From Candidatus Rokuibacteriota bacterium (GTDB taxonomy: Bacteria; Methylomirabilota; Methylomirabilia; Rokubacteriales; CSP1-6): DNA of 64,000 bases. The translations under genes and the position numbers were made by a program. The DNA is taken from NCBI GenBank assembly GCA_003221615.1, contig QHSQ01000108.1, forward strand, positions 9,678 through 73,677, written 5' to 3'. Numbering within the stretch: position 1 is the first letter of the stretch; each line of letters begins with the position of its first letter. Under the pieces are notes generated by a model, which was given only the letters and a program-made list of their open reading frames with translations, ran no database searches and was not told the origin of the DNA. This document shows, piece after piece, positions 7,753 through 31,521 of the stretch.

Positions 7753-7789
7753 CGGCCAGAGGCGTGTCAATCAATCCACGGAGGATGCG

Positions 7790-8293: not shown

Positions 8294-8310
8294 TCTTCGA
8301 AGCCCAACCC

Positions 8311-8784: not shown

Positions 8785-8805
8785 GCTCGACAGGAGATTC
8801 CCGCG

Positions 8806-8998: not shown

Positions 8999-9041
8999 GC
9001 ATCGGGCTGCGCGCCGGCGTGGAGAGTGGGACAATCGAGTC

Positions 9042-16233: not shown

Positions 16234-17463
16234 GTGCCCAGATTCAACGAGTTCTACCTGAACCTCAATCAGAGCTATCTCTTCGCCGAGATCCGGCGCC
16301 GGACGAAGGTGTACACCGACGCGCATCCCGACGTTCGCCTGGTCGATCTCGGCGTCGGCGACGTGACCCAGCCTCTGCCCGCGGCCGTCGTGCGGGCGAT
16401 TCACGAGGCGGCGGACGACATGGCGCGGCGCGAGACCTTCAAGGGCTACGGGCCCTACGTCGGTTACGAGTTCCTGCGCGCCGAGATCGCGACCCACGAC
16501 TTCGGCTCGCGCGGCGTGAAGATCGCCGTCGACGAGGTCTTCGTGAGCGACGGCGGCAAGAGCGACAGCGCGAACCTCCAGGAGATCTTCGCGCAGGACT
16601 GCGTGGTCGCGCTCATGGATCCCGTTTACCCCGTCTACGCCGACAGCAACGTGGTCGCCGGGCGTAGCGGCCGCGCCGACGAGAGCGGCCGCTACGCTGG
16701 CATCGTGTACCTGCCCTGCACCGCCGAGAACAAGTTCCAGCCGGCGCTGCCCGACCGGCACGTCGACCTGATCTATCTCTGCTATCCGAACAACCCCACC
16801 GGGGCCGTGGTCACCCGCGAGGCGCTCGAGCGCTGGGTCGACTACGCGCGCGCCGAGGACGCGGTCATCCTGTACGACGCCGCCTACGAGGCGTACATCG
16901 TCGAGCCGGAAGTCCCCCACTCGATCTACGAGATCGATGGCGCGCGGGAGGTGGCGATCGAGTGCCGCAGCTTCTCGAAGAACGCGGGCTTCACCGGCAT
17001 GCGCCTGGCCTATACGGTCGTACCGAAGGAGACGCGTGGCCGCGGCGCGGACGGCAAGACGATGAGTCTCAACACCTTGTGGACGCGCCGCACGTCGATG
17101 AAGTCCAACGGCCCGCCCTACGTCATCCAGAAGGCCGCCGCCGCGGTGTACACCCCCGAGGGGCAAACGCAGGTGCGCGCGCTGATCGACTTCTACATGG
17201 AGAACGCGCGGATCATCGGCGCCGGGCTGAGGGCCGCGGGCTTCACCGTCTACGGCGGGCGCAACGCGCCCTACATCTGGGTCCGCACGCCGCCGTCGAT
17301 CGCGTCGTGGGATTTCTTCGACAGGGTTCTGGAGAAGGCGAACGTCGTCGGAGCGCCGGGCGCCGGGTTCGGTCCGAGCGGCGAGGGTTATTTCCGGCTG
17401 ACCGCGTTCGGATCTCGCGCGCAGACCGAAGAGGCGGTCGAGCGGATCAAGACGCGGATGTGA
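16234..17463 (+). CDS. dapL: LL-diaminopimelate aminotransferase
   Basis: GTG 16234 gives VPRFNEFYLNLNQSYLFAEIRRR..., the characteristic DapL N-terminus. PLP-aminotransferase core present (...SFSKNAGFTGMRLAYTVVP...). The upstream part of ORF 15739..17463 is antisense read-through of the SBP gene. Confidence 0.85.
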   Translation: MPRFNEFYLNLNQSYLFAEIRRRTKVYTDAHPDVRLVDLGVGDVTQPLPAAVVRAIHEAADDMARRETFKGYGPYVGYEFLRAEIATHDFGSRGVKIAVDEVFVSDGGKSDSANLQEIFAQDCVVALMDPVYPVYADSNVVAGRSGRADESGRYAGIVYLPCTAENKFQPALPDRHVDLIYLCYPNNPTGAVVTREALERWVDYARAEDAVILYDAAYEAYIVEPEVPHSIYEIDGAREVAIECRSFSKNAGFTGMRLAYTVVPKETRGRGADGKTMSLNTLWTRRTSMKSNGPPYVIQKAAAAVYTPEGQTQVRALIDFYMENARIIGAGLRAAGFTVYGGRNAPYIWVRTPPSIASWDFFDRVLEKANVVGAPGAGFGPSGEGYFRLTAFGSRAQTEEAVERIKTRM

Positions 17464-18211
17464 GGGCGCCGCGCCGCACCACCGCGCCGTCCCGTCCCTG
17501 CGAGCTTGCCAACGTCTGGGCCAGCAGCGCCGCCGTCGAGGGTGCGAGGCGGTGCTTCCGTGAGAGCTCGAGCACCGCCTGATAGAGCTGCGAATAGCGA
17601 ACGACCGTCGCCCGCGCGTCGCCCGCCTCCACACGGCACAGCGGATGGGTGAAGACGATGATCGACTCCACCCAGCGCAGGGTCGAGGCGGCCAGCTCGG
17701 GGTGGCGCTCGGTCAGAAAATACCGGATGGCGCACGCGCCAGAGTTGACCTGTCGGCCGATGCTCTTTCGCCGATATCCGTTGACGGACCAGTCGTCGCC
17801 CCAGCAGCGAATGTTCCCCGCGAGGCGTTTCGTCTCGATGACGACCACGCCACACGGGCCGATCAGCACGTGATCGATGTTGCCGTGCGCCAATCCGAGC
17901 GTCACGTCGTTGACGAGCCAGTAGTCGTCCGGGAGGCCACCGAGGAGATCGGTGACCAGGCGCTCGCCGAGGCGGCCGGTGCGCACGTTGCGCAGTCGTC
18001 GGGCCACGGGCCGGCCGAGCCGGAACGCGGTGACGACGGCGAGGAGCCCGACGCCCAGGTGGAGCGGGGTCGGATGGAACAGTCCGGAACCCGGCTCGCC
18101 GACGACCAGCGCAATTCCCAGGCTCGCAAGCACGATCAGACCGACGAGCGCGGCCCACAACCGCTGCTCGCGGCCTTCGAGGTAATGGCCCCCGACGCGC
18201 ACCTGCCGCAT
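17447..18211 (-). CDS. Membrane-anchored NERD (nuclease-related) domain protein
   Basis: Two N-terminal hydrophobic helices, then a NERD pattern (...GERLVTDLLGGLPDDYWLVNDVTLG..GNIDHVLIGPCGVVVIETKRLAG...). The ATG lies 1 nt after the mglB stop (TGAcATG). The 3' end overlaps the dapL 3' end by 17 nt. Confidence 0.8.
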   Translation of the reverse strand: MRQVRVGGHYLEGREQRLWAALVGLIVLASLGIALVVGEPGSGLFHPTPLHLGVGLLAVVTAFRLGRPVARRLRNVRTGRLGERLVTDLLGGLPDDYWLVNDVTLGLAHGNIDHVLIGPCGVVVIETKRLAGNIRCWGDDWSVNGYRRKSIGRQVNSGACAIRYFLTERHPELAASTLRWVESIIVFTHPLCRVEAGDARATVVRYSQLYQAVLELSRKHRLAPSTAALLAQTLASSQGRDGAVVRRGALTSAS

Positions 18212-18212
18212 G

Positions 18213-18695
18213 TCAGCTTGGCGGGGTCCAGGCCGGGCGCGACTCGGTTTCGCTCAGCGGCGCGGCGAATTCTCCCGCCGGCCTGGGGCGCGCGCGGGCT
18301 TCACCGAGCACGCCCCCGACCGTGCGGCTGGCCTCGCTGGCGAAGAGCCGCACCATGCCAACCGTGGTGCGCTCGTCGAAGATGGCGAGGAGGATCGCCT
18401 CGTCGTCGACGGTCGAGACGTGGATCGAGCGCTTCGTGCCCTCGTGGAAGAGCACGCTGAACTCAGGCTCGCCGAGCAGGTGGGCCATCGCCGCGGTGGA
18501 GCTGAAGGCGGCGGCCGCCAGCGCCGAGATGGACACCGCGTCGAGCGCCTGGGAGACGCCGTCCATCGCCAAGAGCTGACCGCTGCGGTCGATCAGGAGC
18601 GCCGCGCCCGCGCCCGATTCGCCGAGGAAGCGCGTCAGGATCTCCCGGATCCGCGTCGCGTCTTGCTGCTGGATGACGGTGTTACGAAGCTTCAT
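18213..18695 (-). CDS. mglB: Roadblock/LC7 domain protein, MglB-like
   Basis: Roadblock pattern (...GAGAALLIDRSGQLLAMDG....LAAAAFSSTAAMAHLLG...FHEGTKRSIHVSTVDDEAILLAIFD...). The start overlaps the mglA 3' end by 14 nt. Confidence 0.8.
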   Translation of the reverse strand: MKLRNTVIQQQDATRIREILTRFLGESGAGAALLIDRSGQLLAMDGVSQALDAVSISALAAAAFSSTAAMAHLLGEPEFSVLFHEGTKRSIHVSTVDDEAILLAIFDERTTVGMVRLFASEASRTVGGVLGEARARPRPAGEFAAPLSETESRPAWTPPS

Positions 18696-19299
18696 CGCGC
18701 CTCTCCCGCTTGCCGCCGAACTCGCTGGCGAGGGCCATGCGCGAGACGGTGTTGAGCGTGTCGAAGACGCCCTTCCCCCTGACGGCCGAGGCCTCGAAGA
18801 ACGGGACGCGCGTGGCTCGGCGGTTGAGGACGAACTCCAGGTAGGTCACGGGCGCCAGGTTCGGCAGGTCACGTTTGTTGTACTGCAGCACGTACGGGAT
18901 CTCGTCGAGCGTCGACTCGTACTCACGGAGATTCGCCTCCAGATCGCGCAGGCTCTCCACGTTTTCGCGCAGGCGGTCGAACTGCGAGTCGGCGACGAAC
19001 ACGAGGCCGTCGGCGCCCCGGAGGACCAGCCGTCGCGTCGCGTTGTACTGGACCTGGCCGGGCACGGTGTAGAGCTGGAAGCGCGTCTGGAACCCGCGCA
19101 CGGTGAGCGCCGACACCGGCAGGAAGTCGAAGTAGATCGTCCGGTCGTCGCCAGTCGCAAGCGAGATCATGTTCCCGCGATTCGCATTCGGCAGGCTGCG
19201 ATGGATGTACTGCAGGTTGGCGGTCTTTCCGGCCATGCCGGGTCCGTAGTAGACGATCTTGAAGTCGATGACCCGGTTCGCGTAGTTGATGACGGACAC
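18682..19299 (-). CDS. mglA: Ras-like small GTPase MglA
   Basis: The product can be aligned along its full length, by eye, to my recollection of Myxococcus MglA. P-loop YYGPGMAGKT, DRTIYFDFLP (intrinsic Arg region), the MglA-specific YTVPGQV in place of DxxGQ, and NKRD (G4). Confidence 0.9.
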   Translation of the reverse strand: MSVINYANRVIDFKIVYYGPGMAGKTANLQYIHRSLPNANRGNMISLATGDDRTIYFDFLPVSALTVRGFQTRFQLYTVPGQVQYNATRRLVLRGADGLVFVADSQFDRLRENVESLRDLEANLREYESTLDEIPYVLQYNKRDLPNLAPVTYLEFVLNRRATRVPFFEASAVRGKGVFDTLNTVSRMALASEFGGKRERRDEAS

Positions 19300-19302
19300 G
19301 GC

Positions 19303-21567
19303 TCAGCTCCGCACCAGGGCGTCCAGACGTGTCGCCGCCCGGTCGAGCTCGATCCGCGCGAGCCCCGGTCGATCGATGCGCCCGACGCCGACCAGCATCG
19401 TCACGCTGCCCGACGCCCCGTCCATCGCCCGCAAGACCAGACGATGTGCGCCGAGCTTCAGGATGACCGAGGTCACCGGGCCGACTTCGGCGCCCTCGAG
19501 TGCGAGGTGCAGATCACGCGCGAATCGCGCGAGCGGGAGCGCGTCGAGTGAGCTCGGCAGGAACAGGCACGCGCTGAGCGCGCCCGCATGGTCACGCAGC
19601 AGGGTCGGCGACACCGGACCGAACGCCGTCAGCGACCCCGCCAGGTCGCGCACCGCGGCCGGAACGTTGGCGGCGCGAAGCTCGAGCCCGGCGCCCGCTT
19701 CACTCCGCGGCCCATTGTGCTTGCCGTTGCCGGCTCCGAGCTGTACTTCCCGCGCCGCGATCCGGCACAGCCGCTCGAGCCAGGCCAGTGACGCGCGCGA
19801 GACGACCGCCGTCAGGAGCATCGCGCCGGCGTCGGGGGACTCGAATGGGGTCAGCACGATCGTCGCCCCGGCCGCTGTCAACGTGGCCTGTGTCACCGGC
19901 TCAGGAAGGCGGGCGTCGGCCAGGAACCCCACGAGCCGCGCCGCCGTGCGCACGACCGAATCTTCGCTGATGGCCGGCGCGACGACCGTGACGAGCGTGG
20001 TACCCGCGCCGTCTCGCTGCCCGATCTCGAGACCATTCAGGAGCGGCGCGAGCAAGGTGGCGATGCGTCGCGCTTGCTCGCTCCTGCCGCTCTCGGCCGC
20101 CACGTTCGCGGGCGCCGCGCTCGCAGAAGGTTCGAGCTCGACGATCGGCTCCGGTCCGGTCAGAAGCTCGGCACCGGGCTCCAGCTCGAATTCTGGCTCT
20201 GGTTCTGCCTCGGCCTCCGGCTCTTCCTCCGGCTCTTCCTCCGGCTCGGTCTCTTCGACCGCCTCGGGCTCGCGCGTCTCGTCCACCTCAGCGACGTCCG
20301 GTTCGGCTGTTTCTTCCACGTCGGGAGCGGCCGCCTCGGGAGGCGCCGGAGCATGCGGTTGGAACGGCGCGGGAAACTCTTCGATGTCGTGGAAGTCGGT
20401 CAGCGGCGTCTGGAGCGCGAGCAACGCCGGCGGGATCTGCGGCACCACTTCGTCGAGCGGCAGCAGCAACGAGCCGTCGGGCAAGCGATCCGCGATCTCC
20501 TCGTGAGTCAGCGCGAGCTCGTCCAGGGGGAACTGGTCGGCGACGACCTCCCACTTGACCGGCGCCAGCCCTTCGCCCAGATGCGGCATCAAGAGGTTTC
20601 GCGGCACGAGCAGCGAGACACCCGGCCGCTGCGCATCTTTCAACCCTTCGCGGCCGCGGGCGAACATCTCGACGGGGAGCTGCTCGGCGATGCGAAAGAA
20701 CGGCACCCGAATCATCGGCTCCGTCCAGTCGAGCGCGCGCTTCGGGGTCGTGGCGCCCGGCTTCGACTCCGCCGACGTGGGAACCGTGCTGCGCGGCGCC
20801 GCCGCTCCCACGACGGGCGGCTTGACGGACGCCGGCGGCGGTACGACCACCGGGGTTGACGGCGACGACGCGAGCGCCTGGCCGGCAGGCGCGGGCGACA
20901 AGACGATAGGGCTGGTCGGCGCGGCTGACGGCGCGATCGCCGACGCGACGACGGCCGCTGGCGCCGCTGGAGGTCGAGCTTGAGCCTGCGCCGCGGCGGC
21001 CTGCTCACGCTTTTGCGCGATCGCCGCGCGGGTAGCGGCGGCCGAATCCGCCGTAGGCCCTCCGAGTGGCCGGGGCGCCCCCAGGATCGCGGGCGCCTCG
21101 GGGCGCCGCTGAGCGAGGACCTCTCGCGCCTCGCGAGCCGCGCGGGGCAACAAGAGCGGCTTGAGGCGCGCGAACACCAGCGGCGCAGCCGTCAGCTGGA
21201 GCAAGGTCACCGCCGGCGAGCCCCAGAGCGCGAACGCGACCGCGGCGCCATAGTTGAGAAGGTCTGGGATCATGAAGAGCGCGCCGGTCGCCACCACGAG
21301 CACCGCATGCACCCCGCACATCGTGGCCGCCGCGCCGAGCACTGAACGGATCGAGAGCGGGCGCACGCTGACGAGCCCGACGAGCACGTAGAACACGGGC
21401 GGGATCACCAGAGCCGGCAGCACGAGCGCCGGCGAGGCTTCGAGCGGTGTGGCGCGAAGGCCCCGGGCGTGAAGGGCCAGCACCGCGCAAGCGTAGAGCT
21501 CGAGACCGAGCGAGAGCTCGAGCGCCCAGACCAGCCTCACCCGCGAGGAGCGTGGCCACGCCATCAA
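19303..21567 (-). CDS. Large multi-domain protein: N-terminal TM bundle, Pro/Ala-rich linker, conserved central module, acidic PE-rich repeat, two C-terminal Roadblock-like modules
   Basis: The ATG overlaps the stop of the upstream REC/Roadblock gene (ATGA). There are 4-5 hydrophobic helices in the first ~140 aa and a low-complexity AP-rich region. The acidic stretch reads EETAEPDVAEVDETREPEAVEETEPEEEPEEEPEAEAEPEPEFELEP. C-terminal segments (...TLVTVVAPAISEDS..., ...VTSVILKLGAHRLVLRAMDGASGSVTMLVGVGR...) resemble the Roadblock/LC7 alpha-beta-alpha pattern; this assignment is an inference. Confidence 0.7.
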   Translation of the reverse strand: MMAWPRSSRVRLVWALELSLGLELYACAVLALHARGLRATPLEASPALVLPALVIPPVFYVLVGLVSVRPLSIRSVLGAAATMCGVHAVLVVATGALFMIPDLLNYGAAVAFALWGSPAVTLLQLTAAPLVFARLKPLLLPRAAREAREVLAQRRPEAPAILGAPRPLGGPTADSAAATRAAIAQKREQAAAAQAQARPPAAPAAVVASAIAPSAAPTSPIVLSPAPAGQALASSPSTPVVVPPPASVKPPVVGAAAPRSTVPTSAESKPGATTPKRALDWTEPMIRVPFFRIAEQLPVEMFARGREGLKDAQRPGVSLLVPRNLLMPHLGEGLAPVKWEVVADQFPLDELALTHEEIADRLPDGSLLLPLDEVVPQIPPALLALQTPLTDFHDIEEFPAPFQPHAPAPPEAAAPDVEETAEPDVAEVDETREPEAVEETEPEEEPEEEPEAEAEPEPEFELEPGAELLTGPEPIVELEPSASAAPANVAAESGRSEQARRIATLLAPLLNGLEIGQRDGAGTTLVTVVAPAISEDSVVRTAARLVGFLADARLPEPVTQATLTAAGATIVLTPFESPDAGAMLLTAVVSRASLAWLERLCRIAAREVQLGAGNGKHNGPRSEAGAGLELRAANVPAAVRDLAGSLTAFGPVSPTLLRDHAGALSACLFLPSSLDALPLARFARDLHLALEGAEVGPVTSVILKLGAHRLVLRAMDGASGSVTMLVGVGRIDRPGLARIELDRAATRLDALVRS

Positions 21568-22412
21568 AGCGCCTGCACGAGCTCCGGCACGGCTTTCCTC
21601 ACGTAGTAGCGCACCTTGCCCAAGACACCTTGATCACCGACCAGCACCGCCAGCAGCGCTGAGGGCCCGACACCGTGCAGCAGCAACGTGCCGGACTCGT
21701 ACTCGAGGATCGTGCCCACCAGCCGCCCCTGGCCGAGCTCGCGTCCGATGCCGTCGGACGCCTCGGCCAGACACGAGGCCAGCGCGCCGGCCACCTCGTC
21801 GGCGTCGGGCGCGAGGTCGCCGGCGGTCTCGATCAGGAATCCCTCGCGATCGGTGAGCGCGACGAAGCGGATGCCCGGCGTGCCGGCGAGCGCCTCCAGG
21901 CGCTTCTTGAGGCCCTGGTCCGACGGCGCGGGGGCGGTCGACGCGGAGGAGGGTCCATTCGACGCGGGCACGGGCGCCGACGACGTGGGTATGGACAGCG
22001 GCGCGGGCGGAGCCGCGGCGGCCGCCTTCTGCGTTCCGTTGGAGCGCCCGGCGAGCAGGTGGTCGATCTTCCGCACGAGGTCGTCGACGCCGAACGGCTT
22101 GAACATCACCTCGTCGGATCGCACCTCGGCGGCCCGCGCCTGGACCGTGCCGTTGTCGATCCCGGAGATCAGGAGCACCGGCGTCGCGCCGATGGCGGGA
22201 TGGGTCCTCACGTACTGGCAGATCTGATAGCCGTCCTTGTCAGGCAGGATCACGTCGCAGATCACGACGTCGGGTCGGTCGCGATCGATCATCAGGATCG
22301 CCTCGGCGCCGGACGCGGCGGCGAGCACCTGAAGCCCACGACCCTCGAGCGCTTTCTCGACGACCTTCCTCACGCTCAAGCTGTCGTCTACCACGAGGAC
22401 CTTCGGCATCAC
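21564..22412 (-). CDS. Response regulator: receiver domain fused to Roadblock/LC7 domain
   Basis: Canonical REC (VLVVDDS..., VVICDVILPDKDG, LLISG, MFKPF), a Ser/Pro/Ala linker, then a Roadblock pattern (...IRFVALTDREGFLIETAGD...ILEYESGTLLLHGVGPSALLAVLVGDQGVLGKVR...). Confidence 0.85.
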   Translation of the reverse strand: MMPKVLVVDDSLSVRKVVEKALEGRGLQVLAAASGAEAILMIDRDRPDVVICDVILPDKDGYQICQYVRTHPAIGATPVLLISGIDNGTVQARAAEVRSDEVMFKPFGVDDLVRKIDHLLAGRSNGTQKAAAAAPPAPLSIPTSSAPVPASNGPSSASTAPAPSDQGLKKRLEALAGTPGIRFVALTDREGFLIETAGDLAPDADEVAGALASCLAEASDGIGRELGQGRLVGTILEYESGTLLLHGVGPSALLAVLVGDQGVLGKVRYYVRKAVPELVQAL

Positions 22413-22418
22413 GTCCTC

Positions 22419-23204
22419 CTAGGAGATGGGAGCCACGGCCGCGTCTGCGCGGCCCTCGTCGATCTCGGCGGCGGCGCTCAGCAAGAGCTGCTTGAGATCC
22501 CGATGAATCGTCTTCGCGGCTTTGACCGCCGTCGCCTCGAGTGGATTGAACGCGAAATTCCCGGTCGCCTCGCCGTGCGCCGCGATCAGCAAGGCCGCGA
22601 AGGCCGTCTCGCCGATGAGCCCGAAGAACTCCGCGTGCACGACCCGTCCGCGGTCGAAGAAGACGGCGCCGCGCCCCGACGGCAGCGTGACCACGAGCTG
22701 GCCGGTCTTGCCGCCGAGCGCGATCGCCTGCGTGATGTCCGGCAGCTCCATCACCGCTAGCGACCCGCGCAGGCCGTGGGCGCCGTCGGGCTGGGGGGCG
22801 GGCGCGGTCGGCTCGCTCGTCGCGACGGGCGGCTGCGCCGCGCGCCCCAGGAGGTTGGCGACCTCGGAGACGATCGCGGTGAGTGGCAAGTCACCGGCAA
22901 GCGTCTGGTCCGGCTTGCCCTCCAGCATCGTCGGGGCCGCCTCATCACCGGGGCTCACGAGCAGCAGGAACAGCACGCCCGTCATCAGGGGATCCTTGCG
23001 GACGATCGAGCATAGCTCGTAGCCGTCGATGTCCGGCACGCCCACACGGCTCACGATGAGATCGGGCCGATTGCGCTCGAGCATCGTCAGCGCGAAGGAG
23101 CCGCTGGTCAGGGCCAGCACGTCGCTGAAGCCGCCCTGGGCCAGGGCCGCCTGCATCGCAGCGAGCCCCGTTCGGTCCGGATCGATCACGATCACGCGCG
23201 GCAT
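22419..23204 (-). CDS. Atypical receiver domain (phospho-acceptor Asp replaced) fused to C-terminal DUF4388/PATAN domain
   Basis: REC-like N-terminus whose acceptor position reads PDLIVSRVGVPDIDG (Arg where Asp is expected). The C-terminus LRGSLAVMELPDITQAIALGGKTGQLVVTLPSGRGAVFFDRGRVVHAEF...GETAFAALL...GNFAFNP matches the DUF4388 consensus pattern. Confidence 0.8.
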   Translation of the reverse strand: MPRVIVIDPDRTGLAAMQAALAQGGFSDVLALTSGSFALTMLERNRPDLIVSRVGVPDIDGYELCSIVRKDPLMTGVLFLLLVSPGDEAAPTMLEGKPDQTLAGDLPLTAIVSEVANLLGRAAQPPVATSEPTAPAPQPDGAHGLRGSLAVMELPDITQAIALGGKTGQLVVTLPSGRGAVFFDRGRVVHAEFFGLIGETAFAALLIAAHGEATGNFAFNPLEATAVKAAKTIHRDLKQLLLSAAAEIDEGRADAAVAPIS

Positions 23205-23211
23205 GGTCGCC

Positions 23212-26130
23212 TCAGGCTCCCGCGCGCGCCGGCGTCGCGACGGCGAGCGACTCGATCAGCTGAACGAAGCTCGCCTCGTCGACCGGCTTGGCCACGTAGT
23301 GCTCCACGCCGAGCTCGCGCGCGAGGTTGACGTGCTTGGCGCCGGCCCGCGTGGTCAGGACCACGACCGGCAGGTCGCATGTTCTCGGCTCACGGTTGAG
23401 GTCGCGGATCAGCTCGTAGCCGTTGAGGCGCGGCATCTCCAGATCCGTGACGATGACGTCCACCGACTGCTCCGAGAGCTGTTGCAGCGCTTCCGCGCCG
23501 TCCCGAGCGGCGACGACGTGGAACCCGGCGCGCTCCAGCATTCCGCCGACGAACCTGCGCACGCTGACCGAGTCGTCGACGAGCAAGACGCGGCGCCTGG
23601 CCTCGACGGCCGGCGCGGCGACCGCCTCGCGCTCGCGACGAAACTCGCCGGCGCGCGGCCGGGCCGACGCCGCGCTCATCTCGAGGAGCTTCAGCGAGTC
23701 GAGCAGCAGGACGACCTGCCCCTGCCCGGTGACGGTCGCGCCGGCGAAGGGCCCGATGCCCTGCAGGAAGGCGCCGAGATTCTTGATCACGATCTCTGCC
23801 TTGCTGAGGAACTCGTCCACGACCACGGCGAGCGTCTTGCGCCCGGTTCGGAGGGTGACGACCGACAGCGGCCCAGCGGTCGCGCGGCCCGCGATCTGGA
23901 GCACGCGATCCAGCCGCACGAGGTCCACGCTCTCGCCCTCGATCTCGATCGACTCGACGCCGTCCATGGTCCGGATCTCTTCCGGACGGACGTGGATCGC
24001 CCCCTTCACGGCCGGGACTGGGATCGCCAGGGTCTGCGGCCCCACGTTCACCATGAGCGCATCGGCGATGGCGACGGTCAGCGGCAGACGTATCCTGAAG
24101 CGCGTGCCGCGCCCCGCCTCGGTCTGCACCTCGATCTCGCCGCCGAGGCGGCCGACGTTCGAGCGCACGACGTCCATGCCGACGCCGCGGCCCGCGGCGG
24201 TCGTCACCGAGGTAGCGGTGGTGAGGCCGGGCAGGAAGATCAGGTCGAGGATGTCGCGCTCGCCGAGCCGCGCCAGGGTCTCGGCCGTGGCGAAGCCGCC
24301 GCGCCGCGCGGCTTCCGCGACGGCCTCCACGTCGATGCCGCGGCCGTCGTCCGCGACCTCGATGTAGATCGACCCACCCTTGTGGGCGGCGCCGAGGTGG
24401 ATCGTGCCCTGCGGCGGCTTGTCCGCACGGCGGCGCACCTCCTCGGGCTCGATGCCGTGGGCGATGGCGTTGCGCACCAGATGGATCAGGGGATCGGCCA
24501 TGAGCTCGACGATGGTCGTGTCCATCTCGACCGTCTCGCCGCGGACCTCCAGCACGACGCTCTTGCCGGCGGCCCGCGAGCCGTCACGCACCATTCGGAC
24601 GAACGGCGCGAAGAGTCGGCCGACGGGGACCATGCGCGCGCGCGTGATCTGACCGCGCAGCTCGCCGCTGAGGCGCTGGACGCCGCCGGCGTCCTCCCGC
24701 ACGACCCGCACCAGACCGGTCAGCTCGTGCTGGATCTCCGTGAGGTCACTCGAGATCTCGCCGACACGGCGGGCGAGGAGGTTGAAGTCATCGTAGCGGT
24801 CGAACTCGAGGTCGTCGAAGAACTCCCCCAGTGGAGACGCGCCCGCCTCGGTCGAGCCCCCGCCCGACGAGCGGACGGGCGGCACCAGACGGTCGGCGTA
24901 CTTCGACTCGAACTCGGCGACGGTCTGGGTCATGCGCGATTGCGTGAACGACAGGAGCTCGCCGGCCTGCTCGAGCTGGACCAGGTGGCGCTCCAGGCGG
25001 CTTCGCGTGATCACGAGCTCACCGACCAGGTTCATCAGCGCGTCCAGTCGATCGAGGCTGACGCGGATGCTCGGACGCACCCTACGCGCTGCGGCCTCGC
25101 GGCCCGAACGGCCCCGCTCCGGGCCACGCGTGACGGGCTCGGGAGCGTGGGCGACGCGCTCGGCGGCCACCGCCGGCTCGAGACGCTCGGGCGCCTCCGC
25201 GACGGATGGCTGGCTCGTCGCGACCGCGCTCACCGCCGCCGCGTCGTCGGCGGTCGGATGCTCGACCGATTGGACGCTTGGCTGAGGCGTCAGCGTCGTC
25301 CCCGTGCCGATCGCCGGCAATGAAGCGAGGAGCCCCATCGCGCGCTCGTAGGCGGTGGCGCGCGTCTCCGCTCGGTCCTCCCCGCTCCGCACGAGGAGGC
25401 GAAGGGCATCGAGGCCGGCGAAGACGGTCTCGATCGCGGCTCGATCCAGCGGGCGCTGATGCTCGCGGATCTGGCCGAGCATGTCCTCGACCCGATGCGC
25501 GAGGTCGCCGACCATTCCGCACCCGACCGTGTAGGCGGCACCCTTGAGCGTGTGGACCGCCCGGAACAGCGCCGCGATCTCGGACTCGGTCGCGCCCTCG
25601 CCCTCGAGCGCGACCAGCGACTGCGCCATCGATTCGAGGTGCTCGACCGCCTCCGGCACGAAGTACTCGAGCACGTCCGCCTGGTCGGTGAAGAATCGGT
25701 CGAGCTCGGCGAGCCGCCGCGACGTCTCATCGGCCGGCGGCGGTGGCGTCGAGGGGACCAACCCCGCGAGTGACTCCGCGATCGCCTCGGCGTCCTCCAC
25801 CCCCGTCTCGCCGATACCGTCGAGCGCCGTCTTGAGCCAGAACACCATGTCGCCGAGTGACGCGAGGGCGCGGCGATCCGTGCCCGGGGGCGTCGCGCCT
25901 ACTCGCTCCACCGCCCCCTCCATCGCCGCGGCGAGACCGGCCACCTGAGGAAAGCCGCTGAGGGCGGCCGAGCCGCGGAGGCGATGCGTCACCACCGCCA
26001 GATGCTCGACCACGGCGGTCGGATCCGCCGAGCCCCGGAGCGTAGCGAGGCCGTCCTCGACGGCGGCGAGGGTGTCCCACGCCTCCATCAGGAAGACACT
26101 CAGGAGAAACTGCCGGTCGTCTTCAGCCAC
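23212..26130 (-). CDS. cheA: Hybrid CheA-type histidine kinase (HPt-HPt-dimerisation-HATPase-CheW-like-REC)
   Basis: GTG start after GGAGG. Two HPt motifs (VVTHRLRGSAA and AVHTLKGAA). Dimerisation segment (RVSLDRLDALMNLVGELVI). ATPase boxes (HLVRNAIAHGIE; DDGRGID; GRGVGMDVV). CheW-like domain, then a C-terminal canonical REC (VLLVDDS...VIVTDLEMPRLNG...KPV). Confidence 0.9.
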   Translation of the reverse strand: MAEDDRQFLLSVFLMEAWDTLAAVEDGLATLRGSADPTAVVEHLAVVTHRLRGSAALSGFPQVAGLAAAMEGAVERVGATPPGTDRRALASLGDMVFWLKTALDGIGETGVEDAEAIAESLAGLVPSTPPPPADETSRRLAELDRFFTDQADVLEYFVPEAVEHLESMAQSLVALEGEGATESEIAALFRAVHTLKGAAYTVGCGMVGDLAHRVEDMLGQIREHQRPLDRAAIETVFAGLDALRLLVRSGEDRAETRATAYERAMGLLASLPAIGTGTTLTPQPSVQSVEHPTADDAAAVSAVATSQPSVAEAPERLEPAVAAERVAHAPEPVTRGPERGRSGREAAARRVRPSIRVSLDRLDALMNLVGELVITRSRLERHLVQLEQAGELLSFTQSRMTQTVAEFESKYADRLVPPVRSSGGGSTEAGASPLGEFFDDLEFDRYDDFNLLARRVGEISSDLTEIQHELTGLVRVVREDAGGVQRLSGELRGQITRARMVPVGRLFAPFVRMVRDGSRAAGKSVVLEVRGETVEMDTTIVELMADPLIHLVRNAIAHGIEPEEVRRRADKPPQGTIHLGAAHKGGSIYIEVADDGRGIDVEAVAEAARRGGFATAETLARLGERDILDLIFLPGLTTATSVTTAAGRGVGMDVVRSNVGRLGGEIEVQTEAGRGTRFRIRLPLTVAIADALMVNVGPQTLAIPVPAVKGAIHVRPEEIRTMDGVESIEIEGESVDLVRLDRVLQIAGRATAGPLSVVTLRTGRKTLAVVVDEFLSKAEIVIKNLGAFLQGIGPFAGATVTGQGQVVLLLDSLKLLEMSAASARPRAGEFRREREAVAAPAVEARRRVLLVDDSVSVRRFVGGMLERAGFHVVAARDGAEALQQLSEQSVDVIVTDLEMPRLNGYELIRDLNREPRTCDLPVVVLTTRAGAKHVNLARELGVEHYVAKPVDEASFVQLIESLAVATPARAGA

Positions 26131-26153
26131 GCCACCTCCAGTCGATCGGAGCC

Positions 26154-27929
26154 TCAGCTGCTCAGCTTGAACCGTGCGAGGCTCGCCGTGAGCGCCTCGG
26201 CCACGCGGACCATCTGATCCATGGTCTTCCGCGTCTCGACCACGGCCTTCTCGGTCTCGACCGCCACGCCGGCGATCGACTGGACCGCGACCGCGCCGCC
26301 CTCGACGCCCCGCACCTGGTCCTGCGTCGTCTGCGAGATCTCCAGCGCCAGCGCCGCGGACTTCTGCGAGATCTCGCCGATCTGGTGCAAACGCTCGCCG
26401 GCCTCGACCGTCACCTTGAAGCCCGCCTCGACTTCACGAGTGCCTTCTTCCATGGCCACGACCGCCTGCTGGGTCTCGGCCTGCACGGCCTTGATCAGCA
26501 CGACGATGTCCTTGGCCGCCTTGCCGGAGCGCTCGGCGAGCTTTCTCACCTCTTCGGCCACGACCGCGAAGCGCAGGCCGGACTCGCCGGCGCCAGCGGC
26601 CTCGATGGCGGCGTTGAGCGCCAGGAGGTTGGTCTGCGACGCGATGTCCTCGATCGTGTTCACGATCTCGGAGATCTCGAGCGAGCGATCGGCCAGGCTC
26701 TTGACCTTCTTCGAGATCCCCTGCACCTCGCCCCGGATCCGCTGCATCCCGGTGAGACTGGCGCGCACCGCGTGCTCGCCCTTGGTCGCGGAGTCGAGCG
26801 TCAGCTTGGCGGCCTCCGCGGAGGCCTCCGCGTTCCCGGCGACCCGCCGCATCGAGCGAGTCAGATTCTCCATCGCGTCGCTCACGCCCACGGCTTCCCG
26901 CGACTGCGTCTGAGCGCCGCCGGCCGTCGCTTCCATCGCGCCGATCATCTCCGTGGCGCTCGTCAGCACCTGCTGCGCGGTATCGCGCACGTCGTTGATG
27001 ATCATCGCCAGCTCGCCGACCATCACGTTGATCGCGTCGACGACGCTGCCGAGGGCGTCGGAGGTCACCTGGCCGCGCTTGGTCAGGTCCCCCTGCGCGA
27101 TCTCGGTCGCGATGTCGAGGAACCGCGTGATGTTGCGCTGGAGCTCCTCGCGCTTGTGGCGCTCCTCGTCACGCTCCGTTTCGGTCTGGACCAGCGACCG
27201 CAGCCGGACCACGGTGTCGTTGAAGGTGTTCGCGAGCTGCCCGATCTCGTCGCGTGACTTCACGACCACGAGCCTCGAGAGATCGCCCTGCCCCACGCGC
27301 TCGGCGACCCGCACGACCTGGATGACCGGCTTGGTGATCTGGTGGGCGAAGACCGCGCCGGCGAGGACCGCGAGCAGCGCGACGCCGCCGAAGACCAGGA
27401 GCAGGTTCTGGCCGGACTTGGCCGCCGCGGCGGTGATGATCGAGCGGTCCATCCCCACGCGAACCGTTCCGAGCTGGCCGGCGAGGACCGGCACGCCGAT
27501 GTCGATGATCTGCTGAACCGCCCCCGTGACCGGGTCGGCGTAGGCGATGTCGCGGACCTGCTGCGTCGCCTCGCCGGGCACCAGGTTGCGGTCGACGATC
27601 CCGGCCGGGACCAGCGGCGAGAACGTGTGCGCGACCAGCGTCTTCTGCGGGTCGTACACGATCACGTACTTGACGCCGTTGATGGCGGCGAACTGGTCGA
27701 CGGTGGCCTGCACCGTCGACGCGTCGCGGGTCAGCAGCAGGTCGACGCCCGAGCTGGCCAGGCTCTTGGCGATGGCGCTGCCCTTGGAGGTGAACTCGTC
27801 CGTCAGGTTCGTGGTGAGGGCGCGCACCGAGATCCACCAGGTGATCGTCGCCAGCGGAACGAGCGTCACCGCCAGGAACAGGATGATCTTCCCGAGGAGA
27901 CCCAGCCGCACGGTCCGTTGCTTGTTCAT
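26154..27929 (-). CDS. Methyl-accepting chemotaxis protein (TM1-periplasmic sensor-TM2-HAMP-signalling domain)
   Basis: The start ATG 27929 ([21 protein letters not shown]...) overlaps the stop of the upstream SBP gene (ATGA). HAMP (...[25 protein letters not shown]...) is present. The conserved hairpin tip reads [42 protein letters not shown]. The rest of listed ORF 26154..29153 is read-through. Confidence 0.9.
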
Positions 27930-29227
27930 GCTTTCACCGCCGCCGCCCAGTCCGTGATGGGGGCCCATCGAGCGTTCACCACTCTGGTGAAGTACACGTT
28001 GTCCAGCCCCTGATGCCGCTCGGGCCCGAACGTGAGGGGCGCGCCGATGCCGAGGTCGAAGCTCCTCAGTGATTCGAGCGCCTGGCGGAATCCGGCGCGC
28101 GTCGGGTTCGGTCCGGCGCGCCGTAATCCCTCGACGATCACCCGGGCATTGACGAAGCCTTCCAGGCTCCGGAAGCTGAGCTGCTCGGGCGCGTGCTTGG
28201 CATCGCGAAGATAGTCGGGAATCTGTGGATTGTGCTTCTCCATCAGCGCCCGATACTCGACGACGCCGGGCAGGCTCACGTCGTCGTAGCTCGGCACCAC
28301 CTGTGAATTGACGAGCGCCTGCGTGTAGTCGCGCGCGGTGGCCTGGCCATGCTTGAGGAGGAGATGCAACATCGCCTCGGAGCCGACGAACGACACGTTC
28401 GAGATCGGCACGGTCCAGCCCAGGTCCCGCGCGGTCCGCACGAACGCGCCGCAACCCTGATAGGCGCCGGTGCACAGCACCGCCTCGACGCCGGCCTCGC
28501 GAAGCGCCTGCACGGCCGGAGTCATGTCGTCCTCGAACTTGGCGCCGCGGATATAGGTGGCCTCGGCGGCGATCCGCATTCCGCGGTGCGCGAGCCCGCG
28601 GGCGACGCCGTCGGTACCGCTGCGGCCGTAGGCGTCGATCTGGTAGTAGACGCCGAACCGACGTACGCCCGTCTGCCAGAAGCGCTCGACGAGCGCCACC
28701 ATCTCCTGCCGGTACGAGGCCCGGATGTTGAAGACCTGCTCGAGATAGGGCTCCTCGCGCTGCGGCTGGGCGCCCGTGAAGTTGCCGACCAGGATCACCT
28801 GGCGGTCGGCATAGCGCTTGATCACCGGGAGCGCGCGCGTGAGCGTCGGCGTGCCGACGTAGTTCGAGAGAAAGAAGACCTGCTCCTTCTCGACGAGCTC
28901 GATCGTGTTCTTGATGCACGGAGTCGGCTCGTACCCGTCGTCGAGCGCGACGACCGAGATCGCGCGGCCGTGCACACCGCCGCGCTGATTGATTTCGCTG
29001 TAGTAGGCCAGCGCGCCGCGATAGAGCTCGACCCCGAGGCCCGCCGAGGGCCCCTTGAAGGCGGCGCTCATACCGATCCGAATGTCCTTGGTGCTCACGC
29101 CGGGGCTGGCGCCCCGCGCATCGATGCCGCTCCGGGCGGCCGCCTGGCCCCACGCCGAACGGTTCCGGCCCAGGACTCCGCCCACCGCGGCCGCCGAGAG
29201 CACCTTGAGCACCGTTCGCCGTTTCAT
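27926..29227 (-). CDS. Periplasmic binding protein, Leu/Ile/Val-binding (type 1, LivK-like) family, encoded inside the che operon
   Basis: GGAGGAGG SD, then ATG 29233 or 29227. Tat-like signal [20 protein letters not shown]. Core ...[53 protein letters not shown].... Confidence 0.85.
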
Positions 29228-29229
29228 CG

Positions 29230-29697
29230 TCATTCCTCCTCCCGCTGCGCTTCTCTCAGCGCCCGCAGAAGCCGTCCCGGATCGAGCAGGGGTACGAGCC
29301 GCTCGCCGTCGGGCAGAAACCCGAGGGCCCACCGCGCGTGGGGCTGCGGGCTCGACTCGTCGAGCGTCACGATGCCGCCGAACGCCTCGAGGCTGACCTC
29401 ACCGTCGATGACCAGTGCGACCTCGAATTCTTCGGCCTCCACGATCAAGGTCGACAGCTTGCGCCCGCCGCGGCGGGCGGCGAGCCCGAGCACTGCACGG
29501 GCATCGGCGATCGGTACGACGTCGCCGCGCAGGTTGGCCACACCCACGAGATGCGGCGGCGCTAGCGGCACCGTCGTCCACTCCTCGAAGATCGCGACCT
29601 CGCGCACCTGGATGACGTCGAACGCGAACGGCTGGCCGGCGAGCGCGAACACGCAGGCGCGGACCGCCGCGGAGCTGTCGAGCAGACTGGTGCTCAT
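29230..29697 (-). CDS. cheW: CheW-like coupling protein
   Basis: ATG 29697 overlaps the cheY stop (ATGA). CheW pattern ...[20 protein letters not shown]...[23 protein letters not shown].... Confidence 0.9.
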
Positions 29698-30056
29698 CGG
29701 AGGAACCGCCTGACGATCGCGAGGAGCTGGTCGGCCGTGAACGGTTTCGCCAGGTACTCGTCCGCGCCCTGGCGCATGCCCCAGATGCGGTCGCTTTCCT
29801 GGTTCTTCGAGCTGACCACGATCACGCGCGCCTGCTTGGTGCGCTCGTCCCGGCGCACGCCGCGGAGCGCCTCGAAGCCGTTCCGCTTGGGCATCACGAT
29901 GTCGAGCAGCACGACGTCCGGCTGCTCCTTGGCGATCTTCTCCTCCAGCTGGTCGCCGTCGAGGTACGTGACAACGTCGTACCCGGCCGATCGGAGGATC
30001 GTTTCCATCACCTGGAGCTCGGAGTACGCGTCGTCGACCACCATCACCTTGGGCAT
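29694..30056 (-). CDS. cheY: Single-domain CheY-like response regulator
   Basis: ATG 30056 (MPKVMVVDDAY...) with GGGAGG upstream. Canonical REC residues (DD, VVLLDIVMP, VVSS, AKPF). Upstream codons of ORF 29694..30167 were discarded. Confidence 0.9.
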   Translation of the reverse strand: MPKVMVVDDAYSELQVMETILRSAGYDVVTYLDGDQLEEKIAKEQPDVVLLDIVMPKRNGFEALRGVRRDERTKQARVIVVSSKNQESDRIWGMRQGADEYLAKPFTADQLLAIVRRFLR

Positions 30057-30211
30057 CGGGGCGCAGGCCTCCCGGGGCGGTTCTGCCGTCGTGTCCGCCG
30101 TATGTGCCTCGGTGCAACCCATCTGCCACCGCCAGCGTCGATGGCGCGCGCCTTTACGCTCGAACAAACGCGGTACTTAGGCGATTTAACTCGCTCCGCG
30201 GCTCGTGCTCG

Positions 30212-30251
30212 TGACAACTAGTCCGTTCCGATGACAACTTCTGTCAATACT
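30212..30251. promoter_or_regulatory. Direct repeats TGACAACT (x2, 20-bp spacing) plus TGTCAATACT in the divergent che / TPR-Roadblock intergenic region
   Basis: TGACAACT occurs at 30212-30219 and 30232-30239, and the related TGTCAATACT at 30242-30251. The patch is locally AT-richer within the 299-bp divergent intergenic region. Confidence 0.25.
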
Positions 30252-30355: not shown

Positions 30356-31132
30356 ATGCTGTTCGCGCGAATCTGGCACCTGGTCCGGGGCACGAAACGA
30401 CAGCCGACGAGCGCACTGATGTTGCGGGCGCAGCGCCTTCGGGACGAGGGACGCTACCGGCGCGCGGCCGGGCTCGTCGACGAAGCGCTGGTCCACGATC
30501 CGAAGAGTGTCGTGGGGCATCTGTTGGCGGCCTCGCTCCACATGGTCCTGCGCGAGACCGGCCAGGCCAGGACCTCGTTCGAGCGAGTGCTCGCGCTCGA
30601 GCCGACGCAGCCGCGAGCGCTGCTGGGGCTCGCGCGCGTCGAGCTCGAGGACGGCGAGACGTCGGCGTGCTGCGCGCTGCTCAATCGAGCGCTGGCACGC
30701 TATCCGGACTTCCCGGAGGCACGCGCCCTGCTCGAGGTCGCCCGGGGGCTCCTGATAACCGCCGACACGAAGCGCGACACCACGTCGAACGGGACGGCCC
30801 ACGCCGACCGTCTGCGTCTGCCGGCCGAGAGCCGCGAAGCGTTGTTCATGCGAGCCGATGCGACCGTGATCGTCGCCGAGCCGCATGGACCGCGGACCGA
30901 CGCGGTCACCGCTCGCGCCGTGAAGCTCGCGACCGTCGCAACGGCGATGCTCGGACGCGCCGGGCTCGGTCCGTTGCGTCACGCCGTCATCGAGGGCGCG
31001 GCCGAGACGACGTACCTGCGCAGGGACGACGCGGCGCTGCTGACCCTGTCCTTCGACCGCGACGTGAAGTGCACGACGGCGCTGGGGCACCTCGAGCGGG
31101 TGTGGCGCAGGTGCCGCTCGGAGCTCGCATGA
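30356..31132 (+). CDS. TPR-repeat protein with C-terminal Roadblock-like region
   Basis: N-terminal TPR-like helices (...RYRRAAGLVDEALVHDPKSV...FERVLALEPTQPRALLGLARVELEDGE...LNRALARYPDFPEARALL...). C-terminus ...ALFMRADATVIVAEP....AVIEGAAETTYLRRDDAALLTLSFDRD... (Roadblock-like by inference). Confidence 0.7.
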   Translation: MLFARIWHLVRGTKRQPTSALMLRAQRLRDEGRYRRAAGLVDEALVHDPKSVVGHLLAASLHMVLRETGQARTSFERVLALEPTQPRALLGLARVELEDGETSACCALLNRALARYPDFPEARALLEVARGLLITADTKRDTTSNGTAHADRLRLPAESREALFMRADATVIVAEPHGPRTDAVTARAVKLATVATAMLGRAGLGPLRHAVIEGAAETTYLRRDDAALLTLSFDRDVKCTTALGHLERVWRRCRSELA

Positions 31133-31521
31133 GCGCCACCGCCGTCGCGACGCGTCCCGCGGACGGGCGCGACCTCCGTGCCGTGCTCGCCGAGCTTCTG
31201 AAGCTCGAGCACATCATCGGCGGGCTCGTCGTCGCTCCCGACGGGCTCGTGATCGCCGCCAATCTTCCGCGCGAGGTTCAGGCCGAGCCGCTGTCAGCGC
31301 TGGCGGCCGCGCTGGGTCGCGAGCTCGAGCTTCGCGGCCCTCGGCTTCGGCGCGGAACGTTTCCGACGGCACAGTTCGCGAGCGTGAGCGGATCCGCGTT
31401 TCTGGGCAGCACTCCCGTGGGCTACATCGTGCTGCTCGGTGAACCGCGCGCGGACTGGGACTCGGTTCGCTCGGGTCTGCGCGGCGCGCTCGGAACCGTC
31501 TATCGCGCCTGGGCGGGCTAG
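31129..31521 (+). CDS. Roadblock/LC7 domain protein
   Basis: The ATG overlaps the stop of the TPR gene (ATGA). Pattern ...IIGGLVVAPDGLVIAANLP....LSALAAALGREL....FASVSGSAFLGSTPVGYIVLLGEPRAD.... Confidence 0.75.
   Translation: MSATAVATRPADGRDLRAVLAELLKLEHIIGGLVVAPDGLVIAANLPREVQAEPLSALAAALGRELELRGPRLRRGTFPTAQFASVSGSAFLGSTPVGYIVLLGEPRADWDSVRSGLRGALGTVYRAWAG

Follow-up and report, generated by a model that had tools for sequence, protein, structure and literature searches.

We describe a string of genes in a 64-kb window (~70% G+C), the whole stretch of DNA analysed here, which comes from an uncultured soil member of Candidatus Rokubacteria. Eleven minus-strand open reading frames (ORFs) between positions 17447 and 30056, each with a third-position G+C of 0.85-0.91, join a chemosensory core to two adaptor proteins, a large membrane protein of an unannotated family, and the small GTPase MglA with its Roadblock partner MglB. 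The string is most likely a signal-to-pilus steering device that has not previously been described. We review its genes, their conservation, and their gain and loss in related lineages, and we discuss how such a device might work.

The first-pass annotation of this DNA had reported eleven tightly packed same-strand genes, and both the packing and the positions are confirmed: every junction is an overlap or a gap of no more than 23 nt. Three 4-nt overlaps connect cheY, cheW, the binding-protein gene, and the chemoreceptor gene, and a 23-nt gap precedes cheA. Next come a 7-nt gap to the receiver/PATAN (REC/PATAN) gene and a 6-nt gap to the receiver/Roadblock (REC-Roadblock) gene; the latter overlaps the gene for the 754-aa protein by 4 nt, or by 1 nt if the ATG lying one codon downstream serves as the start. 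A 3-nt gap then leads to mglA, which overlaps mglB by 14 nt, and 1 nt separates mglB from the final gene, encoding a NERD protein. The string is sharply bounded, because a convergent aminotransferase gene (ending at 17463) closes one end and a divergent TPR gene (starting at 30356) the other. Pfam likewise upheld every domain call made earlier, and it gave no match for the 754-aa protein.

The chemosensory core comes first. It comprises a CheY-like single-domain response regulator (29694-30056; 120 aa; Pfam Response_reg, 94 bits), a CheW coupling protein (29230-29697; 155 aa; Pfam CheW, 71.5 bits), a periplasmic solute-binding protein (PBP) of the LivJ type (27926-29233; 435 aa; Pfam Peripla_BP_6, 159.5 bits), a transmembrane chemoreceptor, or MCP (26154-27929; 591 aa; Pfam sCache_3_2, HAMP, and MCPsignal), and a hybrid CheA (23212-26130; 972 aa; Pfam 2 x Hpt, H-kinase_dim, HATPase_c, CheW, and REC), all on the minus strand. 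The members of a chemosensory core are thus all found here: a CheA with Hpt, dimerisation, ATPase, and CheW-like domains, a CheW, an MCP with a signalling domain, and a CheY-type receiver. The PBP bears a Tat-like RRTVLK signal, read from the sequence, and its gene keeps the same position in all related loci; it is probably the ligand-presenting partner of the receptor. The receptor is built of a first transmembrane (TM) segment, a periplasmic sCache domain, a second TM segment, HAMP, and a signalling hairpin, with hydrophobic stretches at residues 11-29 and 176-194. Its C-terminal arm of ~143 aa, or ~20 heptads, is compatible with class 40H, a rough estimate only.

The kinase scores 269 bits against solved CheA cores, and both of its Hpt domains retain the histidine of the H-x-L-[KR]-G motif. 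In alignments to E. coli CheY, the canonical DD/D/(T/S)/K set is kept in CheY, in the CheA receiver, and in the receiver of the REC-Roadblock protein. The gene order cheY-cheW-mcp-cheA, with a multi-Hpt hybrid CheA, is the layout of the type IV pilus (Tfp) class, as in Pil-Chp and Tax. In Pil-Chp (pilGHIJ-chpA) and Tax/Pix (pixGHIJL), cheY, cheW, mcp, and a hybrid cheA follow one another in this order, and the kinase has multiple Hpt domains and a C-terminal receiver. In one relative, L173, on a contig from a long-read metagenome-assembled genome (MAG), cheA (6147-9100) was called as three genes (Hpt, kinase core, and receiver), and a small antisense ORF intervenes; the split is probably not real but a frameshift error of the assembly, and L174 is fragmented in the same way.

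Two adaptor genes follow cheA. The first (22419-23204, minus strand) encodes a 261-aa protein with a pseudo-receiver and a PATAN (DUF4388) domain (Pfam DUF4388, 59.6 bits; partial REC, 37.4 bits). Aligned to E. coli CheY, its receiver is degenerate (D57->R, D13->P, K109->G), and the phospho-acceptor position is occupied by R, Y, or G in all 55 distinct orthologues. A PatA-type regulator, in which PATAN precedes a phosphorylatable receiver, was considered and rejected on this replacement of the acceptor Asp and on the domain order, which here runs from receiver to PATAN.

The second adaptor gene (21564-22412, minus strand) encodes a 282-aa fusion of a receiver to a Roadblock/LC7 domain (Pfam REC, 77 bits; Robl_LC7, 44.8 bits). 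Its phospho-acceptor set, DD/D/S/K, is invariant in 56 of 56 orthologues. The Roadblock profile of the fusion aligns to that of MglB with an hhalign probability of 96.5% (E 8e-10); on this profile comparison, the domain is homologous to MglB. We propose that the REC-Roadblock protein is the phosphorylation-controlled link from CheA to the MglA cycle. Word-index searches with the fusion from the window and from locus L020 returned close Rokubacteria relatives only, and are uninformative on che-mglAB strings in other phyla.

The GTPase gene, mglA (18682-19299, minus strand), encodes a 205-aa Ras-like protein (Pfam Ras/Arf). Two features define Group-1 MglA proteins (PMC4316618): a TVPGQ G3 motif, whose Thr replaces the usual Asp and whose Gln is catalytic, and an arginine that neighbours the G2 threonine. 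The window protein has LYTVPGQ at residues 76-82 and the intrinsic arginine R53 beside the G2 threonine (DDR53-T54); T78, Q82, and R53, as well as the P-loop and the NKRD motif, are invariant in 118 relatives. Over its full length, it scores 240.6 bits against Thermus thermophilus MglA (residues 1-196) and 222.6 bits against Myxococcus xanthus MglA, with eukaryotic Ras and Arf at ~30 bits. It is a Group-1 MglA, because TVPGQ, the intrinsic Arg, and full-length similarity to characterised MglA coincide; hidden Markov model and PDB searches bear out the family placement of the first-pass annotation, which had named a position outside the MglA family as a refuting result.

The adjoining mglB (18213-18695, minus strand) encodes a Roadblock-type protein of 160 aa (Pfam Robl_LC7, 45.9 bits), the candidate cognate GTPase-activating protein (GAP) of MglA. 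All eight of its PDB matches are MglB, the best being that of M. xanthus (78.7 bits) and Thermus MglB also among them. It scores 68.7 bits against the NCBIfam MglB equivalog NF052242 (Thermus-type), below the cutoff of 200; this model is narrow in lineage, so the result limits the 'equivalog' label and not the assignment to the MglB family. All genes of the string are under purifying selection where present, and mglA is the most constrained: the pairwise ratio of nonsynonymous to synonymous substitution rates (dN/dS) is 0.06-0.14 for mglA, 0.13-0.25 for mglB, 0.16-0.26 for cheA, 0.29-0.35 for the 754-aa gene, and 0.16-0.25 for the NERD gene, with dS approximate only in so strongly codon-biased a genome. 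In locus L140 (10421-11034), the tblastn match to mglA falls into two overlapping segments that lie in different frames, which may reflect a frameshift (a pseudogene) or a sequencing error.

Between the adaptors and mglA lies the gene for the 754-aa protein (P754; 19303-21567, minus strand). P754 has no Pfam or NCBIfam match, either whole or in four pieces at E<=10, and eight longer relatives also have no Pfam domains. All 167 of its word-index matches are called 'hypothetical', and an exhaustive profile search (E<=1e-3) found 303 clusters of the family in a 50% representative library, unannotated wherever names exist. In an alignment of 30 homologues, a conserved N-terminus with four hydrophobic (TM) segments is followed by a variable Ala/Pro-rich linker. 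A second variable linker, this one acidic, separates a conserved domain (283-385) from two further conserved domains of the alpha/beta type (~490-611 and 637-753).

AlphaFold2 models the middle domain of P754 as four strand-helix repeats (predicted local distance difference test, pLDDT, 77-90). Given 88 aligned sequences, it builds the C-terminal half as a pair of alpha-beta-beta-alpha-beta-beta-beta-alpha domains (mean pLDDT 77; predicted template modelling score, pTM, 0.77). A Roadblock identity for these two domains was tried and rejected at an hhalign probability of ~1% against MglB profiles (E 0.04-0.2); we do not call them Roadblock, because the agreement is confined to the order of secondary structures. 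A Foldseek search of the PDB with both models gave nothing significant, and no Roadblock protein was among the top 50 for the C-terminal model. A distant relative on a JGI contig, P0490 (1648 aa), matches mainly the middle of P754, the best of its four stretches covering profile positions 262-443. It sits among ABC-transporter and HepT/MNT toxin-antitoxin genes; thus, the middle domain is not confined to che-mgl operons.

How widespread is this arrangement? Its recurrence goes far beyond chance. The identical MglA sequence occurs with the same neighbours on at least 23 independently assembled soil-metagenome contigs, including one NCBI Rokubacteria-type MAG contig. We then compared MglA against one genome per species and took the 80 nearest loci. 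The ten nearest (71-94% identity) are all from Candidatus Rokubacteria/Methylomirabilota MAGs, one of them labelled Nitrosotalea and probably mis-binned. As far as the contigs extend, all ten keep the order PBP-MCP-cheA-REC/PATAN-REC/Roadblock-P754-mglA-mglB; one short contig spans P754 to NERD only. This order persists down to 50% identity in the CheA core and 33% in P754. The next 70 loci (MglA 54-63% identical), mostly from Verrucomicrobiota, have mglA-mglB without che genes; in the sole exception, che genes lie on the opposite strand.

Metagenome contigs were also scanned with P754, which added 80 further loci, partly redundant; gene presence and absence were scored by tblastn with the window proteins. 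In total, 80 loci have at least 700 nt downstream of P754, and in 70 of them mglA lies directly after it, its start 3-13 nt away. A chimeric assembly was rejected, the same linkage being found on many independent contigs. Since the linkage recurs in independently assembled contigs, it is a lineage-wide trait. The first-pass annotation had named a linkage unique to this contig as a refuting result; the che-mglAB linkage instead recurs across the candidate-phylum lineage. That annotation's view of the composition as uncharacterised also held within the literature covered: we found no account of a che-mglAB(-pilB) string in full text, although most subscription journals lay outside the coverage, and absence is not proof.

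The deeper clades add the gene that points to an output. In loci L015, L016, L017, L019, and L020, a 692-aa ATPase gene (T2SSE, 483 bits, plus MshEN) begins ~20 nt after mglB on the same strand. The deeper-clade ATPases exceed the NCBI PilB equivalog cutoff (749.8 and 702.4 against 675.65), stay below the GspE cutoff, and carry an MshE-type motif for binding cyclic di-GMP. Locus L173, which is the L020 contig with wider flanks, reads cheY-cheW-PBP-MCP-cheA-REC/PATAN-REC/Roadblock-(261 aa)-(731-aa P754 homologue)-mglA-mglB-pilB. Locus L175, on a 75% G+C contig reached through a distant P754 relative, reads PBP-MCP-cheA-REC/PATAN-REC/Roadblock-P754-mglA-mglB-pilB-TPR-Roadblock on one strand. In all, pilB is co-directional with mglB in four Rokubacteria sub-lineages. 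The position of pilB directly after mglB in these sister clades points to type IV pili as the probable output; the analogy with pilus-associated systems, first drawn from the che gene order, is strengthened by the presence of pilB within the string there. In addition, ~35 Verrucomicrobiota loci (L021-L065, e.g., L025:5019-11151) have co-directional genes for a TPR+MshEN protein, PilB, a large unknown ORF, MglA, and MglB, a linkage that goes unmentioned in the literature covered. The unknown ORF of these loci is ~876 aa long and has a weak Roadblock-like stretch just before mglA.

The string is also dismantled repeatedly. Loci L091 and L092 are orthologous to that of the window: they share its flanking genes, their CheA cores are 81-84% identical, and they run from cheY through P754 straight to NERD without mglA-mglB. 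Eight more loci have no intact mglAB directly after P754, and seven of the eight read P754-NERD. One locus preserves the scar of an in-frame deletion (L115:4810-5091), in which mglA codons 1-13 are joined to mglB codon 83 at a TTC microhomology. Its near-identical sibling, L117 (10956-12051), has intact mglAB, which suggests strain-level polymorphism for loss of the GTPase module. In a neighbour-joining tree of P754 rooted on the pilB-type loci, the mglAB-less loci fall at three positions inside mglAB-containing clades; hence, mglAB is ancestral and was lost at least three times, a count that depends on a rough tree of a fast-evolving protein. The L092 junction is a 57-nt spacer without convincing similarity to mglA or mglB; because it is uninformative, the direction of change is read from the tree and the L115 scar.

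A second pair of genes is lost along with mglAB. Divergent from cheY, a 258-aa TPR protein (30356-31132, plus strand; Pfam TPR_19/TPR_14) and a stand-alone Roadblock/LC7-like protein of 130 aa (31129-31521, plus strand) are encoded with the ATG of the second overlapping the stop of the first by 4 nt. The latter scores 21.3 bits against Pfam Robl_LC7, just below the cutoff of 23, and its L020 orthologue reaches 31.9 bits. By tblastn, this pair is orthologous to the pair that adjoins pilB in L017-L020 and L175. The TPR gene lies beside cheY in 14 of 14 mglAB-containing loci with upstream coverage, and in L173 it instead follows pilB. It is absent from four of four mglAB-less loci with coverage, of which L164 keeps a 114-nt remnant. 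The two pairs thus co-occur or are jointly absent (15 versus 4 loci) with no exception. Because gene pairs at opposite ends of the string are lost together, we argue that they work together. The TPR-Roadblock pair belongs to the system, and the first-pass annotation, which had listed eleven genes, missed this perfectly co-varying pair. By eye, residues ~150-258 of the TPR protein, which have no Pfam match, display a Roadblock-like pattern of hydrophobic strands; if this is real, this half of the protein could heterodimerise with the adjacent Roadblock protein.

We propose the following mechanism. A Tat-exported LivJ-type protein would bind a ligand, probably an amino-acid-like solute, and the loaded protein would dock on the periplasmic sCache domain of the receptor, which via CheW would control the hybrid CheA. 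CheA would then phosphorylate three canonical receivers: its own, the small CheY, and that of the REC-Roadblock protein, the first two being likely sinks or modulators. Roadblock proteins act as homo- or heterodimers (MglB, MglC, LAMTOR), and MglB is a Roadblock GAP. Because Roadblock domains dimerise and MglB is such a GAP, we propose that REC-Roadblock, once phosphorylated, may pair differently with MglB or with the remaining Roadblock proteins (the stand-alone one that partners the TPR protein), the least certain stage of the scheme. The changed pairing would shift the GTP/GDP state or the location of MglA. MglA-GTP, the TPR protein, and the unphosphorylatable PATAN pseudo-receiver would act on the extension ATPase PilB, with P754 as a putative membrane anchor or scaffold. 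PilB as their shared target would fit its place beside mglB in sister clades.

These proposals differ in strength. That the string is a chemosensory pathway whose dedicated task is to steer type IV pili, and that all of its output stage is encoded beside it, we regard as having somewhat better than an even chance. Put more broadly, as a chemosensory system that steers pili and has an MglAB branch attached to it, the proposal is at least as well founded and on the whole probable. The strict relay from CheA through REC-Roadblock to the MglA cycle is plausible and unproven, with a little less than an even chance; we rate it no higher because the che core survives the loss of mglAB. The fullest version is held only tentatively and is more doubtful than the bare relay. 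In this version, phosphorylation would gate the pairing of the REC-Roadblock protein with MglB; the fusion would act as a GAP modulator or co-GAP and connect CheA to a Ras-like GTPase in one step. Together with the P754 scaffold, PATAN, and TPR-Roadblock, it would form a minimal chemoreceptor-to-GTPase-to-PilB polarity switch that arose or was retained outside the myxobacteria and was repeatedly dismantled by deletion of the GTPase branch.

Five points weigh against the pilus-steering interpretation or limit its detail. At least ten related loci keep cheY through P754 intact without mglAB at the locus. The REC-Roadblock, PATAN, and P754 proteins must therefore have a role that is independent of a cis-encoded MglA. 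No pilB or other pilus gene was seen within the 64-kb window, Pfam having been run on part of its ORFs. The adaptation enzymes CheR and CheB are present in most chemosensory classes, not all; none is encoded among the eleven genes or within 10 kb in the relatives L091, L092, L173, and L175, so that adaptation is unexplained. The pilus-type label derives from gene layout, not from class-specific profiles, and is to be read as an assignment by arrangement. Finally, by the sequence and fold searches above, P754 has no detectable relative of known function.

The first of these points feeds the strongest rival explanation: that two parallel modules share one locus and serve the same machine. The che core would signal through PATAN, REC-Roadblock, and P754, and MglAB with the TPR-Roadblock pair (and pilB) would be separate, so that CheA would not control the GTPase. 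In its favour, mglAB and TPR-Roadblock have disappeared together on at least three occasions, with purifying selection still acting on the che core and adaptors, and the ~35 Verrucomicrobiota loci offer MglAB with pilB and no che genes. Nevertheless, a Roadblock domain homologous to MglB is fused to a canonical receiver and lies between cheA and mglA in every locus. The 3-13 nt between mglA and the preceding gene in ~70 loci imply co-expression, and the Frz kinase of M. xanthus acts on the MglA/MglB module through receiver proteins (PMC3441718, PMC4546325). We judge separate modules unlikely, yet worth serious weight. Because mglAB is lost repeatedly while the che core persists, MglAB is a detachable accessory module in either case. 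The first-pass annotation had made the GTPase part of the device: its linkage is indeed conserved, and with at least ten loci without mglAB, it is an accessory branch and not an obligatory output.

A less probable alternative retains the pathway and changes its target: gliding, polar growth or division, exopolysaccharide, or development, with pilB adjacency being secondary. No pilus gene is among the scanned ORFs of the window, NERD replaces pilB in the window's clade, and in other bacteria gliding and predation are also under MglA control (PMC3983030, PMC4316618). Against these stand the co-direction of pilB and mglB in four Rokubacteria sub-lineages and the linkage of pilB to mglAB in Verrucomicrobiota. 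Moreover, the only experimentally known partners of PATAN are PilB and PilC: in Synechocystis, the domain binds PilC and the N-terminal region of PilB1 (10.1101/2021.06.11.447907). Twitching-motility genes have been reported in Rokubacteria genomes (PMC5712423). The cheY-cheW-mcp-hybrid-cheA layout equals that of pilus-associated systems; another output is accordingly improbable. In M. xanthus, MglA-GTP promotes pilus formation via a TPR protein (SgmX).

The region upstream of cheY bears on whether the genes are expressed together. Sigma-54 promoters have the -24/-12 consensus TGGCAC-N5-TTGCW. A putative promoter of this type, TGGCAGATGGGTTGCA (30113-30128, minus strand), is correctly oriented and sits 57-72 nt upstream of the cheY ATG. 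It is the sole match to TGGCR-N6-TTGCW on either strand of the 64 kb, where 0.22 are expected by chance. The 299-nt region between cheY and the TPR gene, aligned from eleven loci, contains invariant blocks, of which one is this element; in the window's clade, all 21 loci with coverage have it 59-77 nt upstream of cheY, those without mglAB included. A perfect inverted repeat, TGACA-N5-TGTCA (30232-30246), unique in the window, lies ~105 nt upstream of the -24 element. It is kept in many mglAB-containing loci and absent from mglAB-less loci, and it may be the site of an activator (an enhancer-binding protein) or an operator that also serves the divergent TPR gene. The window ORFs scanned with Pfam include no sigma-54 activator gene.

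These features are consistent with one regulated promoter before cheY, and the short junctions together with the conserved sigma-54-like element lead us to infer that the eleven genes are co-transcribed. Internal promoters, for example in the 3' end of the P754 gene, might instead drive mglA-mglB-NERD as a separate unit, an arrangement that would suit the modular evolution shown by the detachable mglAB. We consider this improbable as well: the junctions, overlapping or 1-23 nt, are conserved, the only sigma-54-type element of the 64 kb precedes cheY and is conserved, and no terminator-like site falls at any junction. Consensus scans across the string for sigma-70 promoters and intrinsic terminators yielded no promoter and a single terminator-like site, which is intragenic, and shuffled sequence gave more; the scans are uninformative, because the genome has 70% G+C and unknown promoter types.

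The system shares features with three families of known systems. Functionally, its nearest counterpart is the Frz pathway with the MglA/MglB/MglC/RomR-RomX proteins of M. xanthus. Both have a CheA fused to a C-terminal receiver, a kinase that is followed by several receiver proteins, a Group-1 MglA whose gene is in tandem with that of a Roadblock GAP, and extra Roadblock paralogues. In M. xanthus, the output goes to type IV pili via PilB-associated factors that include a TPR protein (SgmX), and an output of this kind is proposed for the present system. The differences are instructive. The partners are not encoded near mglA in M. xanthus (PMC4316618), whereas in the window they are strung together. 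The receptor here spans the membrane and comes with a periplasmic sCache domain and a binding protein of its own, unlike the cytoplasmic FrzCD. Unlike Frz, the string has no CheR or CheB genes, its receiver is fused directly to Roadblock, and it includes PATAN and the novel P754. Recruitment of MglAB to a chemosensory system has been put forward as a hypothesis only (PMC4546325).

With Pil-Chp and the cyanobacterial Tax/Pix systems, its nearest counterparts in architecture, the string shares the che gene order, a PATAN protein in the cluster, and the pilus extension motor as the likely target; like the cyanobacterial clusters, it lacks CheB and CheR. Unlike all of these, it contains MglA/MglB and REC-Roadblock genes, and the domain order of its PATAN protein is reversed. 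An association of PATAN with MglAB is known: PATAN genes occasionally occur near mglA of Group 1 and Group 5 (Makarova et al. 2006; Wuichet and Sogaard-Andersen 2014). The supplementary tables of the latter survey, which predates the Rokubacteria genomes, hold no CheA, CheW, or MCP terms.

The sole established precedent for a histidine-kinase sensor, a Roadblock protein, and an MglA-family GTPase encoded together is the actinobacterial conservon (CvnA-D), which combines a sensor kinase, Roadblock, DUF742, and an MglA-like GTPase in one operon (PMC4316618). Its GTPase is of Group 2 (GTPGQ, no intrinsic Arg) and its kinase a classical membrane kinase, without receivers, PATAN, or a pilus link. 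Conservon identity was therefore rejected for the string: the G3 motif is TVPGQ, DUF742 has no match, and the kinase is a CheA, whereas the conservon kinase is CvnA-type with an LPxR tail.

Establishing the route from a Frz-type kinase to MglA/MglB in Myxococcus took more than a decade; the components are scattered, and the links are still debated. Here, one string encodes the binding protein, receptor, kinase, receiver-Roadblock protein, PATAN protein, putative membrane scaffold, GTPase, and GAP, joined in sister clades by PilB. It yields partner predictions: REC-Roadblock with MglB, and PATAN, TPR, and MglA-GTP with PilB. Natural deletion variants, in which mglAB and TPR-Roadblock are jointly lost, are at hand. 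Chemosensory coupling to MglAB and PilB would thus not be peculiar to myxobacteria, and a sizeable unannotated family, P754 with its 303 clusters, would be at the centre of the device. If phosphorylation does gate the REC-Roadblock protein, the string would be a reconstitutable 'Rosetta stone' for the connection between Frz-type kinases and the MglA module.

The last gene of the string (17447-18211, minus strand) encodes a membrane-anchored NERD-domain protein of 254 aa (Pfam NERD, 56.5 bits). It is confined to the window's clade and occupies the slot that pilB fills in deeper clades. It is probably a clade-specific addition and not a core part, contrary to its earlier listing as a component of the device. 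The protein has an N-terminal membrane segment, and its best NCBIfam match is the NERD region of an anti-phage MADS kinase (50 bits against a cutoff of 460).

Outside the string, the scanned part of the window's ORFs held no pilus, flagellar, or further che genes. Three other sensor kinases are encoded on the minus strand: a MASE1-HisKA protein (33456-35147), a DUF4118-PAS-PAS-GAF-HisKA-REC hybrid (48395-51271), and a 4HB-like HisKA protein (59899-61515). The remainder is devoted to metabolism and transport, with two Opp/Dpp-type ABC systems, amidohydrolases, luciferase-like monooxygenases, and an aldehyde:ferredoxin oxidoreductase. Between the TPR-Roadblock pair and an amidohydrolase gene lies a 108-aa ORF without a Pfam match (31630-31956, plus strand). 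Its relatives in the mglAB-less loci L091 (672-1196) and L092 (615-1145) are 174-176 aa long and end in a Cys-rich C-terminus, CCSQH..C..C..CPxCG; the window product resembles them over its first ~82 residues only (63%).

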